A stretch of DNA of 64,000 nucleotides from Aeromicrobium sp. (GTDB taxonomy: Bacteria; Actinomycetota; Actinomycetes; Propionibacteriales; Nocardioidaceae). The notes under the pieces are model-generated. The model saw only the letters and a program-made list of their open reading frames with translations, searched no databases and was not told the DNA's origin. Below are positions 35,968 to 42,433 of the stretch, in pieces; positions within the stretch are counted from its first letter, which is position 1; each line of letters starts with the position of its first letter. Position numbers and translations under genes: made by a program. Location: the NCBI GenBank assembly GCA_045806885.1, contig JBJMIJ010000013.1:150110-214109 (forward strand). The letters run 5' to 3'.

Positions 35968-35976
35968 TTGGAGGGT

Positions 35977-36942
35977 GTGCGCCTGCCCGCCCCACGTGGC
36001 CCCTACAGCGAAGAGCTCTTCGACAGCTTGGCGAATCGCACCCGGCTCTTCGCCCCGCCGGACGAACTCGCCGACGACGACCGGCACATCGCCCTGTGGG
36101 CCCTGTACGAGCTGCACTATCGCGGATTCGCCGGCGTCGACGAGGACCGGGAATGGGACCCCGTGCTGCTGCGGGCGCGCGCAGGCTTGGAGGCACCCTT
36201 CGAGGCGGACCTGCGCGCCCGGTCCGCAGAGGTGGTCAAGCGCACGCTGTCGGAGGGCAGCGGCGTCGTCGAGCAGCTGGGCATCATCGCCACGCGTCGT
36301 GGCTCGGGATTGCCCACATTCCTGGAGCGCAGTGCGACCGAGGCGCAGTTCGCCGAGTTCCTGACCATGCGCAGCGTCTACACGCTCAAGGAGTCCGATC
36401 CGCACGCGTGGGCACTGCCGAGGATCACCCATCATGCGAAGGCGGCCCTCGCCGAGCTCCTGTACGACGAGTTCGGCAGCGGCTCGGGCAACCGCGTACA
36501 CCAGGAGCTGTTCGCCGCCGCTCTTCGCGAAGCGGGCCTAGACCCCATCTACGGCGCGCTGGTCGACCAGGCTCCAGCACACGTTCTCGCCGTCAACAAC
36601 GCGATGAGCCTGTTCGGCCTGCATCACCGCCTGCGTGGCGCCCTGCTCGGCCACCTCGCCGCATTCGAGATGACGAGCACGACACCGTGCCGACGGATCG
36701 CGAAGGGGGCTCAGCGACTCGGTCTCGGCCCTGCCGTCCTGAGGTACTACGAGGAGCACATCGAGGCCGACGCCGTCCACGAGCAGCTCGCGTCCCGCTC
36801 GATCTGCGGCGCGTTGGTCGACGCCGAACCCGCCCTGCACGATGACGTGCTCCTCGGCGCAGCCACCTGCGTCGTGCTGGAGAAGACGTCGGGCATCGCG
36901 ATGCTGAAGGCGTGGGCTGACGGTCGGTCAGCCCTGCGCTGA
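35977..36942 (+). CDS. iron-containing redox enzyme family (haem-oxygenase-like diiron oxidase fold) protein
   Basis: All-helical, about 320 aa. DDDRHIALWALYELHYRGF and EEHIEADAVHEQ resemble this family. The start could also be TTG 35968. Confidence 0.55.
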   Translation: MRLPAPRGPYSEELFDSLANRTRLFAPPDELADDDRHIALWALYELHYRGFAGVDEDREWDPVLLRARAGLEAPFEADLRARSAEVVKRTLSEGSGVVEQLGIIATRRGSGLPTFLERSATEAQFAEFLTMRSVYTLKESDPHAWALPRITHHAKAALAELLYDEFGSGSGNRVHQELFAAALREAGLDPIYGALVDQAPAHVLAVNNAMSLFGLHHRLRGALLGHLAAFEMTSTTPCRRIAKGAQRLGLGPAVLRYYEEHIEADAVHEQLASRSICGALVDAEPALHDDVLLGAATCVVLEKTSGIAMLKAWADGRSALR

Positions 36943-36948
36943 GCCTCG

Positions 36949-37674
36949 TCAGCGGGCCAGCAGCGTCTCCCATGCGTACGCGAGCTCTTTCCACTCGTCG
37001 CGGCACAGTTTGGCGCGGTACTTGGTGAGGGGATCCCCGTCGACGAGGTGCTTCCACGCCTTGGGCTCGGACCCGTACAGCCAGCAGTAAAGGTTCACGG
37101 CGCGCTGGCCGTCGCTGCCGTGCTCGTCGTCGTCGGTCTGCTCGTAGAGGTCATTGTCGATCTGATACTCATACGCGTCCGACAGCACGATGTCCGGGTC
37201 CTTCAGGCCGACGATGGCCTGCCAGACCGCGAACTGGTCGGCCGCGTCCTCTTCGCGCCCCGTCACCGGCAGATGACGGACGTCGATCAGGGCGTGGCCA
37301 AGCTCATGCAGCAGCGTGCCCTCCGCGACACCGAGCATCGTCCCGCGGATGTCCTTCTCGCCGCCGTCCTTGATCGCCTTCTTGGTGTCGACGAAGTCCT
37401 GCAGGCACAGTTCCACGACACCCTCGCCGGTGACGTATCCCGTGCCGTCGGTGCAGGACTTGAGGCGCACGACGATGTCGTCCGGCGGATGACCAACGCG
37501 CGCGGCTTGCCGGGCTGCGCGCTCGAGGACACCGCTCTTGCGCAGCATCGTCTGCATGGGACGCAGTTCTTTCTTGACCTTCGGGTATTCGACGGTGACA
37601 TCGCCGTCGCCCGACAGGGCGGGCGAGCAACCGCCTAGGAGGAGCAACGCGGCCAGCAGGAATCGCATGCTCAT
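36949..37674 (-). CDS. DUF4344-like putative zinc metallopeptidase lipoprotein
   Basis: Signal peptide plus lipobox LLLLGGCS. HELGHAL zinc motif. 11 nt downstream of the arsC stop. Confidence 0.65.
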   Translation of the reverse strand: MSMRFLLAALLLLGGCSPALSGDGDVTVEYPKVKKELRPMQTMLRKSGVLERAARQAARVGHPPDDIVVRLKSCTDGTGYVTGEGVVELCLQDFVDTKKAIKDGGEKDIRGTMLGVAEGTLLHELGHALIDVRHLPVTGREEDAADQFAVWQAIVGLKDPDIVLSDAYEYQIDNDLYEQTDDDEHGSDGQRAVNLYCWLYGSEPKAWKHLVDGDPLTKYRAKLCRDEWKELAYAWETLLAR

Positions 37675-37685
37675 CGTCTACACCA

Positions 37686-38087
37686 TCAGGACCCGTCGAG
37701 GTCGGCGATCAGCGCCTTGACCCGCTCCTTGATCGCGTCGCGGATCGGCCGGACGGCGTCGATCCCCTGCCCAGCCGGGTCATCCAGGTCCCAGTCCTCG
37801 TACCGCTTGCCCGGGTAGAACGGGCAGGTGTCGCCGCACCCCATCGTGATGACGACGTCCGATTCCTGCACGGCGGCGTCGGTCAGGAGCTTGGGCTGCC
37901 CGCCCGCGATGTCGATGCCCTCTTCGGCCATCGCCTGGACCGCGACCGGATTGATCTGGTTGCCGGGCTGGGACCCGGCGGACACCACGTCGATGCGGTC
38001 GCCGGCCAGGTACTGCAGGTAGCCGGCAGCCATCTGCGACCGGCCGGCGTTGTGCACGCAGACGAAGAGAACGGTGGGCTTGGTCAT
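37686..38087 (-). CDS. arsC: arsenate reductase, LMW-PTP type
   Basis: CVHNAGRS (CX5R P-loop) and downstream Cys pair GCGDTCP. ATGA overlap with the channel gene. Confidence 0.85.
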   Translation of the reverse strand: MTKPTVLFVCVHNAGRSQMAAGYLQYLAGDRIDVVSAGSQPGNQINPVAVQAMAEEGIDIAGGQPKLLTDAAVQESDVVITMGCGDTCPFYPGKRYEDWDLDDPAGQGIDAVRPIRDAIKERVKALIADLDGS

Positions 38088-38761
38088 GGCAGGGCTCTCG
38101 TCGGGAAGGTGAGGCGGACGAACAGCAGGCCCAGCAGGCCGCCGAGCGCCTGCATGAGCACGAAATACAGGACCGAGCTCGGCGCGATGCCGGCGAAGGT
38201 GTCGGAGAACATCCGGGCGACGGTGACCGCCGGGTTGGCGAAGCTCGTGGACGACGTGAACCAGTAGGCCGCGGCGATGTACCCACCCACGGCGAAGGCG
38301 ATGGTCTCGGAACGACCGGTGCGGATCGACCCGAAGATGACGACCACCAGGCCGAAGGTGGCGACGACCTCTCCGAGCCAGAGGCCCGAGCCGGAACGCT
38401 CGTGGCCGGAGAAATGAACGGCCGGCAGGTCGAACATCAGGTTCGCGACCATGGCACCCAGGATGCCGCCTGCCAGCTGCGCGACGATGAGAACCAGGGC
38501 GCTGACGACCTTCAGTTGGCCAAGGGCCACCTCAATGAGCGTGACGACCGGATTGAAGGCGGCCGAGACGGGTTGCAAGGCCAGGATCAGGGCGACGAGT
38601 GCAGCGCCCGTTGCGACGCTGTTCTCCAGGAGCTGCAGGCCGACGTCGTCGGACAGCCGGCTGGCCATGATTCCCGACCCGATGACGGTCGCGACCAGGA
38701 AGGCGGTGCCAACGAACTCGGCAGCGACCTTCCGCGGAAGGTGATACGTCGGGGGCGCCAT
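38084..38761 (-). CDS. MIP-family channel (aquaglyceroporin, AqpS-like arsenite channel)
   Basis: ATG 38761. NPV (AAFNPVVT) and NPA (SFANPAVT) boxes. Six TM. Confidence 0.8.
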   Translation of the reverse strand: MAPPTYHLPRKVAAEFVGTAFLVATVIGSGIMASRLSDDVGLQLLENSVATGAALVALILALQPVSAAFNPVVTLIEVALGQLKVVSALVLIVAQLAGGILGAMVANLMFDLPAVHFSGHERSGSGLWLGEVVATFGLVVVIFGSIRTGRSETIAFAVGGYIAAAYWFTSSTSFANPAVTVARMFSDTFAGIAPSSVLYFVLMQALGGLLGLLFVRLTFPTRALP

Positions 38762-39114
38762 CAGGCTCCCCCGATCAGCGCCGCGAGGTCGGCCAGGGCG
38801 TCTCCGCGCACCGCGTAGTACACCCACGTCGCGCGCTTCGTCCGGTCGAGCAGGCCCGCCTCGTGCAGGACCTTGAGATGGTGGCTGATCGTCGGCTGCG
38901 ACAGGTCGAAGGCCTCCTGCAGCTCGCACACGCAGGCCTCCCGCCCTTCATGCGCCGCGACGAGCGACAACAGACGCAGCCGGACGGGGTCGGCGATGGC
39001 CTTGAGCAGCGGCGCAATGCGCTCGGCCTGGTCGGCAGACAGCGGGGACGACGTCAGAGGCGAACAGCACGCGACGGTCTCGATCGGCGTGAGCTGAAGA
39101 ACGGACTTCGACAC
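38761..39114 (-). CDS. arsR: ArsR/SmtB family metalloregulator
   Basis: ACVCELQ As(III)-site-like CVC, wHTH LSQPTISHHLKVLHEAGLL. GTG 39114 preferred, because the longer form to ATG 39189 would translate the AT-rich operator region. Confidence 0.8.
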   Translation of the reverse strand: MSKSVLQLTPIETVACCSPLTSSPLSADQAERIAPLLKAIADPVRLRLLSLVAAHEGREACVCELQEAFDLSQPTISHHLKVLHEAGLLDRTKRATWVYYAVRGDALADLAALIGGA

Positions 39115-39131
39115 ACATACATATTGACACA

Positions 39132-39174
39132 CGTCGATATAGCGTGGTGCGATGTATCGATGAACATCTATATA
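39132..39174. promoter_or_regulatory. AT-rich ars control region with direct repeats TATAT(C/A)GA(C/T)G spaced 33 nt (minus-strand reading)
   Basis: Plus-strand cgtcgatata at 39132..39141 and catctatata at 39165..39174. Local GC is far below the surroundings. Confidence 0.4.
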
Positions 39175-39187
39175 CGAGGAGGTCGAC

Positions 39188-39226
39188 ATGTGCTGCGATG
39201 ACTGCTGCCCCGGCGGCTGCTGCTGA
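39188..39226 (+). CDS. 12-codon cysteine-rich micro-ORF MCCDDCCPGGCC
   Basis: GAGGAGG (39176..39182), 5-nt spacer, ATG 39188, six TGC codons, TGA 39224. Followed by a GC-rich stem-loop. Confidence 0.35.
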   Translation: MCCDDCCPGGCC

Positions 39227-39252
39227 GCTCGCCCGCGTGCGCGGCGACTGAG

Positions 39253-40581
39253 TCAGCGCGGCGCGAGCGAGATCTCGGCCGGGTAGACGTCGAACGCGTA
39301 CGGGAGCCGTTGGTTCCGGCGCAGGCGTGGGCCCGCTGTCAGTTTGGGCTCCGCCTGCGTGACGAGCTGTCCGAGGAAGGCCTGCCCGAGGAAGATCGAC
39401 AGTCCAGCGCCGGGACATCCCTGCGGGCCATGGCTGAAGAAGTTGAAGGACCAGTCGGAACCCGCGTTGCCCTCGCTCCACTCCTGCGGCGCGAAGTCGT
39501 CGGCGTACGGGATTCGTCCGCGATTGCGGTGGTTGAACAGGTTGTGAATGAGCAGCGGCGTGCCCGCCGGGGTCTTCTGGCCGTTCTCCCAGCGGTAGTC
39601 CTCGGCCTGGACGCGGCCGAACAACGCCGTCGTGGGCCAGAGGCGCATGGCCTCCAGGATGCATCCGGCCAGATACGTCGACTCGGTGACCGTCTTCACG
39701 GTGGTGAGCTTCTTGGAGCCGATCTCGTCCCGGGCACGCTGCAGCGCATCGGGATGTGTCGCCAGCAACGCGAGCACCCTGAACAGGTTGGTCGGCAGAG
39801 TGTCGCCCATGGCGAACAGCCAGTGGATGAGCTGGCCGGGAACATCGGTCTCGGCGTCCGCGGGTGCCCCCGCGATCATGCCGGTCAGCGCGTTCGCGTC
39901 AGGGGTGTCGACGTATGCGGCGATGTGCGCGTGGAAGCGGTCGTAGCCGGCAGCCGGCTTGCCCGGCATCTTGTTGCCGGCGGCCATCAGCTCGCCCAGC
40001 TGCGCGGTGAGCTCCGTGTCGTCCGCCGCCGCATCGCCGAAGACGACGCGTCGCGCGAGTCGCTGGAAAGCGGCGTTGAGGTCGTCAAAGCGCAGCGGAC
40101 CCTCGCCGGCCAGCAGGTGATCGGCCGTCTCGACCGCGATGGTGGCGAAACGACGCGCCAACGGGTGTGCGGGCGACTCCGGCTTCAGCACCGCCTCGGC
40201 GAAGGCCCGGCGCTTGGCCCACACGTCGCCCCGCGAGATCGTCAGGGCATCGGGCTGGAACGCCGCCATGCCCTTGCGCTTGGCCTCGGGATCGGCGGCG
40301 AAGGGACTGGGTGATCCCCCGAGGACCGTTCTGATGTCGTCCGGATGCGTGAGCAGCAGGGTCTCCTCAGCGCCGACGCGCACCCAGAACGGGTCCGGGC
40401 CGTACTTGCGGGCCAGGCCTTCGACCAGCCGGTAGGCCAGGGCCTCGGCCGGCAGCTTGCTCACCACCGTGACCACGGCCTCCCGCTTGCGGAACAGACC
40501 CTGGGCGACGTTGGGAATGCCCACCTGCGCGGTGAAGCGAACGCCCTCGACGATCGAGGCGTGCTTGAAGTCCAGCGTCAT
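39253..40581 (-). CDS. cytochrome P450
   Basis: ATG 40581. Haem loop FSHGPQGCPG, ExxR (EAMR), I-helix AMGDT. Confidence 0.85.
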   Translation of the reverse strand: MTLDFKHASIVEGVRFTAQVGIPNVAQGLFRKREAVVTVVSKLPAEALAYRLVEGLARKYGPDPFWVRVGAEETLLLTHPDDIRTVLGGSPSPFAADPEAKRKGMAAFQPDALTISRGDVWAKRRAFAEAVLKPESPAHPLARRFATIAVETADHLLAGEGPLRFDDLNAAFQRLARRVVFGDAAADDTELTAQLGELMAAGNKMPGKPAAGYDRFHAHIAAYVDTPDANALTGMIAGAPADAETDVPGQLIHWLFAMGDTLPTNLFRVLALLATHPDALQRARDEIGSKKLTTVKTVTESTYLAGCILEAMRLWPTTALFGRVQAEDYRWENGQKTPAGTPLLIHNLFNHRNRGRIPYADDFAPQEWSEGNAGSDWSFNFFSHGPQGCPGAGLSIFLGQAFLGQLVTQAEPKLTAGPRLRRNQRLPYAFDVYPAEISLAPR

Positions 40582-40603
40582 GCCCCCACCTTGATGTGCA
40601 CGG

Positions 40604-42433
40604 TCAGCCCCACGGCAGGTAGGACTTGACCGTGTCCGCCGCGCGCACGATGACCGGCTTCTTGCCCGGCTCGGTGGCACCCAGCTCGTGCCACGGCGCG
40701 AAGACGCGCTCGACGTCGCCGATGACCGGCTCCAGCTCCGGGTAGTGCCGCAGCAGGACGTCCTTCATCGATGTGTGGTTGACCCAGTCGAAGCCGGTTT
40801 TCGTGTAGATCTCCGGGCGGAAGTCCGTGGTGAAGAATCGGTCGCTCTTGAGCCGGCGCGACGCCATCAGGATGAAGATGCGGAACGCGGTGTCGGAGAA
40901 GCCGAAGCCCTTTGGCGGCTGCTCGGCCTGCATGCCGATCTGCAGGTCGACGGCGTCGACGTCGCCGTTGTAGATCTCGTTCATCTCCTTGGCCCACTGT
41001 TTGTTCGGCGTGATGTCGTCGATGCTCTTGCGCCGCGGCATCCGCAGGACTTCGCGGAAGTCGTTGTAGCGCGGGATGCCACGCTCGCGGTCGCGCACGA
41101 TGTCGAGCGTCGCGAGGTCGGTGATCTGGCCGTCGATGCGCGTCAGGTTGCGCAGAGCGTTCGGGTAGTTGTGCAGGCACACCGCCCCCGCGCTCGCCTT
41201 GCCGATGGAGTACCACTGGTCGCCCATCGTCATGCTGTCCATGAAGTCGCGGGTGAAGCGGCCCTGGATGTCGGTGAAGTACGCGTCGCGCAGGTGCTCG
41301 CCCGACTCCACCGAGTAGAAGGACCAGTCGTCCGGGATGAGCGGGTGCATCCGGTAGACCGACACGAACTCCTCGGTCAGCGAGAACGGTGCGCTGTGGT
41401 GGTCGGTTGCGGAGCCGATGATGCCGGAGAGCGTCTCGCTGTCGCCGATGCGGCCGATCTTGCCCTTGAACGTCTCGCCGAGGGCGCCGAACCAGTTGGC
41501 GTTCATGCCGATCTGCAGCGCCGGGTGCCGCAGGACGCAGGTCGTCCACTCGACGGTGTGAATCTTGGCGATGAGCGCCGAGACGACGAGAACGCCGAGC
41601 TCGAACAGGCGCTGGTCGCTCAGCTCCGGCTGCGCCTTCTTGATGGCCTCGACCACGGAATTGTGCTCGCGGGCGAACAGGGTGTGCAGCAGACCGGGAC
41701 CGAACCAGTAGTTCTCCTGCATGCCCGTCAGGTCGACGCCCGGGATGTCGCTCGCCGGCAGGCGGCCGTTGTCGTCGACCTTGATCTTGCCGTCGACGAA
41801 CGTGCGAATCGTGCCCTGCTTGTCGGCGCCGCTGCCGTAGATCTGCGAGCCGTCCCACCAGTGCGTCTCGGCGTTGGCGAACACGGGGGCCGGGCAGCCG
41901 TCCTTGATCTCGCCGTGCATGGGAATGGTCTCGCGGATCCGCATCGGGTTCTCGGGGAAGTCGTCGCCCGGCTGGAGCGGGATCTCGATGACGTGGTCGG
42001 CAAGGCCGTTGCCGTGGAAGAACCAGTTGTGGTTCTCAAACTGCAGCCAGGCCGCGCCAAGCGCGTTGAGGATGCCGGCCGGCTTGAAGTCGTCGCGCGC
42101 CATCAACACCCGGCTGATCTCGCGCGGGTCGGGCGTCAGCAGCCGCTTGCGATCGACGATCGTCTTCTCGATCGGCGCGTTGCGACCGAAGCCCGTGCCC
42201 TTCGCCCCCATCGCCGGGCAGCCGAGGTCGTTGTACGTGCCATCCGGCATGCGGGCCGTGAGCGCCTCCTCCGGCGGCTCGGCGCTGCCCCCCTCCGGAC
42301 GGATGTCCTCGTGCTCGAACAGGTTTTTCTCCCGCAGGTCGTCACGCTCCGACGACAGGGCCGACAGCTGCAGTACCAGTGAAGGGTGCTCGTACCACTG
42401 CAGATGGAGGGGGTTCGGGATCCGTGGGGTCAT
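40604..42433 (-). CDS. animal-haem-peroxidase superfamily protein, fatty-acid alpha-dioxygenase/COX-like
   Basis: ATG 42433 with AAGGAG 6 nt upstream. Distal-His motif ETHWWDGSQIYG and Tyr-x-x-His motif VYRMHPLIP. Confidence 0.75.
   Translation of the reverse strand: MTPRIPNPLHLQWYEHPSLVLQLSALSSERDDLREKNLFEHEDIRPEGGSAEPPEEALTARMPDGTYNDLGCPAMGAKGTGFGRNAPIEKTIVDRKRLLTPDPREISRVLMARDDFKPAGILNALGAAWLQFENHNWFFHGNGLADHVIEIPLQPGDDFPENPMRIRETIPMHGEIKDGCPAPVFANAETHWWDGSQIYGSGADKQGTIRTFVDGKIKVDDNGRLPASDIPGVDLTGMQENYWFGPGLLHTLFAREHNSVVEAIKKAQPELSDQRLFELGVLVVSALIAKIHTVEWTTCVLRHPALQIGMNANWFGALGETFKGKIGRIGDSETLSGIIGSATDHHSAPFSLTEEFVSVYRMHPLIPDDWSFYSVESGEHLRDAYFTDIQGRFTRDFMDSMTMGDQWYSIGKASAGAVCLHNYPNALRNLTRIDGQITDLATLDIVRDRERGIPRYNDFREVLRMPRRKSIDDITPNKQWAKEMNEIYNGDVDAVDLQIGMQAEQPPKGFGFSDTAFRIFILMASRRLKSDRFFTTDFRPEIYTKTGFDWVNHTSMKDVLLRHYPELEPVIGDVERVFAPWHELGATEPGKKPVIVRAADTVKSYLPWG

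Follow-up and report, generated by a model that had tools for sequence, protein, structure and literature searches.

Is a cysteine-rich open reading frame (ORF) of only 12 codons, located opposite the repressor gene arsR in an arsenic resistance locus, a gene, and what might its product do? The ORF lies in a stretch of 64,000 nt from Aeromicrobium sp. (assembly GCA_045806885.1, contig JBJMIJ010000013.1, positions 150,110 to 214,109), which is called "the window" throughout. An earlier, sequence-only reading had proposed two roles for it, i.e. a metalloid-binding micropeptide or a Cys-codon-rich sensor of thiol or Cys-tRNA depletion. We consider it probable that the ORF encodes an ArsR-repressed, free-standing thiol peptide, which would bind As(III), organoarsenicals or Cd(II). 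The sequence-only reading had missed that the micro-ORF replaces arsI/cadI, the gene that is present at this position in most of the related loci.

A cysteine-rich micro-ORF opposite arsR

Direct reading and in-frame translation (...YR*TSIYEEVD-MCCDDCCPGGCC*) confirmed the described architecture, namely a Shine-Dalgarno (SD) motif, the 5-nt spacer TCGAC, the start codon ATG at 39188-39190 and the codons TGC TGC GAT GAC TGC TGC CCC GGC GGC TGC TGC, followed by TGA at 39224-39226 (Table 1). Six of the 12 residues are Cys, arranged, as claimed, in three CC pairs that are encoded by three TGC-TGC codon pairs. Lys and Arg are absent, and tryptic workflows would therefore overlook the peptide. An in-frame TGA is located upstream (39161-39163), and no ATG, GTG or TTG is found between it and ATG 39188, in agreement with the claimed lack of an upstream in-frame start. 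In the entire genome (2.75 Mb, 67.7% GC), this is the sole ORF of 6-60 codons with at least five Cys and at least 40% Cys.

The ORF had been placed within an AT-rich, operator-like stretch. The low GC content is real (0.44 at positions 39100-39179 versus 0.6-0.76 in the remaining locus), but the stretch is positioned just upstream of the micro-ORF, which itself is GC-rich. On the 3′ side follow a convergent P450 gene (39253-40581), the 3′ end of which lies at 39253 beyond the ORF as described, and a homologue of animal haem peroxidases, which is also convergent. No co-oriented gene is next; the sequence-only reading had correctly dismissed a leader function for any gene downstream.

Micro-ORFs at related arsR loci

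We gathered 110 arsR loci from genomes and 80 from metagenomes, mostly of Nocardioidaceae or soil actinobacteria. About 154 loci, around close ArsR relatives, were informative. The position divergent from arsR is occupied by an ArsI/CadI gene in 117 of the ~154 loci. In 11 loci (the window and ten others), an SD-led micro-ORF is found there instead, which has 7-27 codons and encodes vicinal Cys pairs. These micro-ORFs are located 72-101 nt from the arsR start. In addition to MCCDDCCPGGCC of the window, the encoded peptides are MDDDCCEPGCC (L003), MACDCTCCPPGCCE (L006), MDDCCTGTGCC (L064, Nocardioides sp. Root240), MCDCGCC (L083), MNCCDVTDEQGCCGSSTSGSCCCPTS (L099), MNCCDVTDEQDCCGSTTTESCCCPAS (L199), MDGEDCCPDGGCC (L142), MSRLLDLTNRGGSDDCCDDDCCGTGCC (L143), MPIDDCCDDTCCPDGCC (L147) and MMKELELLYPCCGDVPCDGSCCGSDCC (L200), with 4-8 Cys per 7-27 residues in these relatives. 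No micro-ORF was found in six plasmid arsR loci that were inspected.

All 11 micro-ORFs have an SD-like core (GGAG, GAGG, AGGA or AAGG) 4-8 nt 5′ of the start codon. The scan pattern reported only the first matching core of 4-5 nt, and the upstream sequences contain stronger GGAGG or GAGGAGG runs. The consensus of the aligned peptides is M-x-CC-D-x-D-CC-x-x-G-CC, and the non-Cys positions are also patterned, with Asp/Glu ahead of CC and Pro/Gly ahead of the last CC. The sequence-only reading had named a lack of conservation of the ORF or the SD motif in related ars loci as evidence against it; SD motif, start codon, CC pairs and stop codon turned out to be kept.

The locus L142 is syntenic with the window (arsR, micro-ORF, convergent P450). 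Compared with that of the window, its ORF has an insertion of 3 nt, a synonymous CCC>CCG exchange and replacements within the first CC pair; DCCP..GGCC-stop is kept. In an ArsR tree, the window groups with L003, L142 and L143. Within this clade of four, which has ArsR identities of 84-89%, the ORFs of the window, L003, L142 and L143 comprise 12, 11, 13 and 27 codons, respectively, the indels are multiples of three, and all ORFs are in frame and end with GCC-stop.

A search of 60 relatives for the exact DNA pattern CC-x2-CC-x3-CC-stop matched the window alone; the family is too variable to be retrieved with one exact pattern. The proposed search for CC-pair micro-ORFs next to arsR relatives found SD-led CC-pair ORFs at ten other arsR loci.

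Chance expectation

The background was determined with a genome-wide filter that selected for an SD-like core, a start codon, a length of at most 35 codons, at least three Cys and at least 20% Cys. In 5.5 Mb of strand, it retrieved 18 ORFs (~3.3 per Mb of strand), which were Arg-rich junk. About 0.03 ORFs would be expected by chance at a 50-nt position across the loci, versus 11 that were observed, an enrichment of ~400-fold. Outside of this position or its extension in L075 (see below), only one match was found in 1.35 Mb of locus sequence, with both strands counted. A looser pattern (GGAG...CC...CC-stop), applied to 400 genomes of the order, was dropped: the reversed control was equally frequent and chance CTGCTG strings swamped the pattern, and the search was therefore anchored on arsR.

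A common control region

Nearly all collected arsR loci have one common control region. Read outward from the arsR start, it consists of the arsR start itself (GACTTCGACAT on the shown strand), an element with TTGACA, a gCAA..T box, a second element, the SD motif and the divergent start codon, which is 60-100 nt away from arsR. An alignment of 25 intergenic regions yielded the consensus sequences aTC.ATaTTGACAga.gTCgATgT for the first element, which is common to micro-ORF and ArsI/CadI loci, and AcAT.GAc...CATC.ATaT for the second. The two elements form an inverted pair (TCGATA ... TATCGA). In the window, TTGACA sits 58 nt 5′ of the micro-ORF ATG and likely marks its promoter, and both operator-like repeats are presumably bound by ArsR. 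Promoter, operators and terminator of the micro-ORF are predictions from conservation.

The long arsR ORF that begins with ATG 39189 over-extends into the control region (39112-39189). Alignment with relatives identified GTG 39114 (MSKS...) as the true arsR start. This start adjoins the first operator-like repeat, and arsR may therefore be leaderless or nearly so.

Relation to the tails of ArsI/CadI proteins

The ArsI/CadI-family VOC proteins encoded at the divergent position begin with MSRLQLALNVDDL... and have a core Cys pair, TCCYA (NCBIfam NF041414, E = 5e-57). A Streptomyces plasmid may serve as an example (L225, Streptomyces sp. NBC_01136, NZ_CP108633.1): the Prokaryotic Genome Annotation Pipeline (PGAP) places arsI/cadI divergent from arsR-MIP-arsC, the gene order of the window, and the enzyme ends with ...GDACCSSNAQEAELAPAAAGCACG. 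We regard this locus as the full-length counterpart of that in the window.

A C-terminal tail that is acidic, rich in Gly, Pro and Ser, and contains one or two vicinal CC pairs was found in 57 of 61 ArsI/CadI proteins. Most tails end with CC-stop or with CC and 1-3 further residues, e.g. ...GQECCTSALIEASPAQATAAACC, ...SAEPACC and ...DDDGAACCAGAC. The tail is a feature observed in this analysis and not a curated criterion of the family. In the crystal structures of ArsI (PDB 5C4P and related entries), the chains comprise 123-126 residues and align with the enzyme only up to residue 122, so that the tail is missing. The micro-ORFs match the tail in composition and ending, and the micro-ORF of the window, placed exactly at the arsI/cadI position, would thus represent a free-standing form of it.

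Two loci are informative about the relation between enzyme and peptide. In L075, the gene for an enzyme with tail is followed ~85 nt further on by a separate SD-led ORF, MPDCCQDNYDCCSDDCC, and then by a hairpin. The peptide of L143 reads MSRLLDLTN...DDCCDDDCCGTGCC and has kept an ArsI-like N-terminus (MSRL....N), which suggests that the first codons and the tail were brought together by an internal arsI/cadI deletion. None of the micro-ORFs was found to be flanked by VOC fragments. In the ArsR tree (166 sequences), ArsI/CadI is the majority and deeper state, and the micro-ORF state requires seven changes, at least four of which are forced by well-supported branches. The micro-ORF state therefore arose several times, at least 4-7 times, from enzyme-bearing ancestors.

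Among the 37 enzyme-less loci, 11 have an intact SD-led micro-ORF and one, L061, has a start-less remnant of the tail, while the others retain nothing past the first operator-like repeat. Random deletion would seldom fuse a start codon to the tail in the correct frame, and retention of the micro-ORFs therefore appears to be under selection. The remnant in L061 (Nocardioides panacihumi), ...AGACC-stop, is located 13-65 nt from the arsR start, directly past the first operator-like repeat. It appears to be a genuine scar of an arsI/cadI deletion, with which the intact micro-ORFs can usefully be contrasted.

A few loci, among them L053 (Nocardioides nematodiphilus) and L018, have a flavoprotein gene (MTGLPVIVIGAGPQG...) opposite arsR. 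Near the C-terminus of the flavoprotein, an acidic, Gly-containing stretch (...CGGSGLYDDPEGASAGGCCAP...) includes a vicinal Cys pair, so that CC tails also occur outside ArsI/CadI.

Organisation of the putative transcription unit

The GC-rich stem-loop that had been noticed 3′ of the micro-ORF exists (Table 1). Near-perfect palindromes with stems of 19-30 bp and energies of -40 to -64 kcal/mol are found past the stop codon in L064, L099, L199 and L147 (z = -3.6 for L064), which may act as terminators or belong to a repeated palindromic element. The downstream neighbours vary by lineage: the window and L142 have a convergent P450 gene, L006 has dinB, and the remaining loci have further genes. 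The SD motifs, the palindromes and the varying downstream neighbours therefore point to a self-contained transcription unit and not to a leader for a particular gene. An ArsR-type operator/promoter, 12 codons preceded by a strong ribosome-binding site, and a final hairpin all fit a real, self-contained micro-gene.

In L006 (genome G032), a co-oriented gene for a DinB/DNA polymerase IV-like protein (MTTGTVLHADLDSFFASVEVRDDP...) begins ~35 nt past the micro-ORF. In this organism, the ArsR-controlled promoter might also serve this gene.

Alternative explanations

A chance ORF in DNA of 68% GC, with an SD motif that serves nothing, is extremely improbable. TGCTGC and CTGCTG strings are very common, the loose pattern equalled its reversed control, and the exact pattern is missing from the 60 relatives. 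However, the ORF is unique in its genome, the enrichment concerns one fixed position, and frame, SD motif and stop codon are kept in the syntenic orthologue L142. The caution of the sequence-only reading, that GCTGC-rich strings arise by chance, thus did not hold for this ORF. The second role that it had proposed amounts to a Cys-codon-rich leader: stalling at the six TGC codons under scarcity of Cys or Cys-tRNA would alter termination at the hairpin or drive antisense transcription into the P450 operon. Arsenite stress depletes thiols, and a hairpin is indeed present 3′ of the ORF. In mycobacteria, moreover, consecutive Cys codons form Cys-responsive attenuators (bioRxiv 10.1101/834739). Nevertheless, we regard such a leader as improbable. 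The ORF is SD-led and not leaderless, Cys-metabolism genes are not nearby, and the downstream neighbours change in every lineage. In the window and in L142, the convergent P450 and peroxidase genes come next, and a Cys-sensing leader is unsupported because a co-oriented downstream gene is missing. In addition, the palindromes resemble terminators, Asp/Glu and Pro/Gly recur at defined positions, and the CC-stop ending is that of the enzyme tails.

The ORF might also be a non-functional remnant, i.e. internal deletions in arsI/cadI would have left a start codon joined to the Cys-rich tail, which would be translated or not without consequence. The deeper and more frequent enzyme state, the enzyme-like start of L143, the genuine remnant in L061, the scattering of micro-ORFs over the ArsR tree and the poor conservation of the peptides beyond Cys are all compatible with this explanation, but we consider it rather unlikely. 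SD motif, start codon, in-frame CC pairs and stop codon are kept in 11 of the 37 enzyme-less loci versus a single start-less remnant, and the frame has been maintained through indels of multiples of three in the clade of four. VOC fragments flank no micro-ORF, L075 contains a separate micro-ORF next to an intact enzyme gene, and dedicated strong palindromes follow several copies. Decay would account for how the ORF arose, but not for why it has been kept.

Several points weigh against a functional ArsR-controlled peptide. The micro-ORF is a minority state among the informative loci, a strict pattern did not find it in 34 of 36 genomes of the same genus, and the peptides differ widely in length and sequence. 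The repeated origin from arsI/cadI could also mean repeated decay. A strict scan for sigma-70 promoters and U-tract terminators gave no match, and the promoter was therefore assigned from the conserved TTGACA. The hairpin is unexceptional for the local GC content (z = -1.2; 22 of 200 shuffles fold as well), and a 141-nt region of the window folded no better than shuffles. Finally, a peptide of 12 residues may be unstable in the cell.

The ars operon and the proposed function

The genes on the other side of the control region encode ArsR, an aquaglyceroporin of the MIP family and a phosphatase-type arsenate reductase (Table 1). The top NCBIfam model for the arsR product is the Rv2640c-family ArsR, with 95.6 bits and thus under the cut-off of 155 bits, and the matches of arsC to NCBIfam arsenate reductase models also fall under their cut-offs. 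A gene for a putative DUF4344 metallopeptidase lipoprotein looks like a fourth member of the operon.

Table 1 Features of the ars locus in the window
Feature	Position	Strand	Remarks
Micro-ORF MCCDDCCPGGCC with TGA stop	39188..39226	+	12 codons; direct reading, in-frame translation
Shine-Dalgarno motif GAGGAGG	39176..39182	+	5-nt spacer to ATG
Operator-like element 1, ATATTGACACACGTCGATAT	39121..39140		contains conserved TTGACA (39124-39129), likely -35 box of micro-ORF promoter
Operator-like element 2, GTATCGATGAACATCTATAT	39154..39173		between presumed -10 region and SD motif
GC-rich hairpin	39228..39271	+	-28.3 kcal/mol; overlaps stop codon of convergent P450 gene; possible bidirectional terminator
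arsR	38761..39114	-	117 aa, GTG start; Pfam HTH_5, E = 2e-16; N-terminal CC (Cys16-17), CVC motif
MIP/aquaglyceroporin gene	38084..38761	-	Pfam MIP, E = 2e-19; start overlaps arsR stop by 1 nt
arsC, low-molecular-weight phosphatase-type arsenate reductase	37686..38087	-	Pfam LMWPc, E = 3e-22
DUF4344 putative metallopeptidase lipoprotein gene	36949..37674	-	begins 11 nt past arsC

No Acr3 was found in the genome, which is 96% complete, and no ArsI/CadI or VOC-like sequence was detected at the locus or elsewhere in the genome. The genes scanned with Pfam at 35968-42430 include neither arsA nor arsD. Because Acr3 and ArsI/CadI are missing, the arsR-MIP-arsC operon with its passive channel seems to be the sole recognisable arsenic system of the genome, with the qualification that ArsB was not searched for. 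The peptide would therefore have to act without the enzyme.

The paradigm of ArsR/SmtB repressors suggests how an ArsR-repressed thiol peptide could be integrated into this system. Without metalloid, ArsR would occupy both operator-like repeats, located on either side of the presumed -10 region of the TTGACA promoter, and would close both divergent promoters. Binding of As(III), Cd(II) or an organoarsenical at the Cys sites of ArsR would lead to its release, and the peptide would then be produced alongside the channel and the arsenate reductase. Its three CC pairs could chelate As(III) by three thiolates, and R-As(III) or Cd(II) by a CC pair or four thiolates. The peptide would buffer the arsenite made by ArsC until its exit via the passive aquaglyceroporin, or would hand it on. 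As the only As(III) exit is a passive channel and ArsI is missing, an inducible thiol buffer or carrier for ArsC-made As(III) appears to be the most economical role. Cd(II) is an equally possible ligand, because CadI was named for its induction by cadmium.

The vicinal Cys pair of ArsI is known to bind trivalent arsenicals (Cys98-99 in Thermomonospora curvata; PMC6514093). The metalloid-binding micropeptide favoured by us, which the sequence-only reading had listed among its two options, fits the conserved unit of SD motif, start codon, CC pairs and stop codon, the ArsR-controlled arsI/cadI position and the resemblance to the enzyme tail. The sequence features, their conservation, the position and this resemblance were observed, whereas it is inferred that ArsR represses the ORF, that the ORF is translated and that the peptide binds metal(loid)s.

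Comparison with known systems

The micro-ORF resembles the genes of the ArsI/CadI family (NF041414), e.g. T. curvata ArsI and Mycobacterium tuberculosis CadI (Rv2641), in its location, i.e. it too lies opposite an Rv2640c-like arsR and is preceded by the same operator-like repeats. Its product shares Asp/Glu, Gly, Pro, vicinal CC pairs and the ...CC-stop ending with the tail. In contrast to the enzymes, it is wholly devoid of the VOC/glyoxalase domain, the Fe(II) ligands and the TCCYA core.

Bacterial metallothioneins under the control of ArsR/SmtB repressors, i.e. cyanobacterial SmtA with the divergent smtB and mycobacterial MymT, offer a second comparison. They are also small, Cys-rich products (half of the residues in the peptide of the window), are encoded divergently from a repressor of the ArsR/SmtB family and presumably bind soft metals via thiolates. 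However, metallothioneins have 53-56 residues compared with 7-27 in the micro-ORF peptides and use CxC or CxxC instead of vicinal Cys pairs. The peptide of the window is devoid of histidines and of a zinc-finger-like fold, and its gene is set in an arsenic locus. No sequence relation is detectable, and the peptide is too short for profile searches.

Vicinal Cys pairs in arsenic loci are also found in the metallochaperone ArsD, the pairs Cys12-13, Cys112-113 and Cys119-120 of which are As(III) ligands (PMC12607644). ArsD differs in being a folded, thioredoxin-like protein of ~120 residues with the ATPase ArsA as its partner. The synthetic tetracysteine tag CCPGCC binds the biarsenical dyes FlAsH and ReAsH, with a Pro-Gly turn and one arsenic per CC pair (PMC6710359). 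It is close to the natural cores CC-PGG-CC (window), CC-EPG-CC (L003), CC-PPG-CC (L006) and CC-PDG-CC (L147). The tag was engineered within larger proteins and selected for a rigid biarsenical ligand, and its spacer has two residues in contrast to three or four in the natural peptides, for which binding is predicted.

The polycysteine attenuators of mycobacteria, leaderless short ORFs upstream of operons that typically serve cysteine or sulfur metabolism (Canestrari et al., bioRxiv 10.1101/834739), are likewise unannotated actinobacterial micro-ORFs with consecutive Cys codons. However, they lack an SD motif such as the consensus motif 5 nt upstream of the ORF in the window, they precede a co-oriented operon, which is absent in the window and L142, and they have no counterpart of the ArsR-type control region.

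Literature searches found no description of a Cys-pair micro-ORF in ars loci and no described function for the Cys-rich tail of ArsI/CadI, and the parts of a large 2024 review of bacterial metal handling that were available do not mention such a micro-ORF. A wider proposal is offered tentatively, as an idea with nearly as much for it as against it. The CC-pair peptides of 7-27 residues might form an undescribed class of ars/cad genes, which would have been born repeatedly by reduction of arsI/cadI to its tail. Among the known metal(loid) binders that are encoded by genes, these peptides would be the smallest, and they would be the counterparts of CCPGCC in nature. The tail would then be an autonomous module that captures As(III), methylarsenite or Cd(II) and buffers it or passes it on, whether fused to the enzyme, split from it or alone.

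Significance

Should the peptide be produced and bind arsenicals, annotation pipelines miss a class of genes in ars loci, because these genes are far below the length limits. The unexplained Cys-rich tails of ArsI/CadI, and apparently also of other arsenic enzymes, would gain a testable function, and the micro-ORF peptides are easily tested as synthetic peptides. In practice, they would be ready for use in biosensing or bioremediation as tags that bind arsenic or cadmium and can be encoded genetically. For metal(loid)-binding proteins that are encoded by genes, the lower size limit would be moved down to ~10 residues, and the actinobacterial ars loci would present a clean case of a micro-protein gene that was born through the loss of an enzyme domain.
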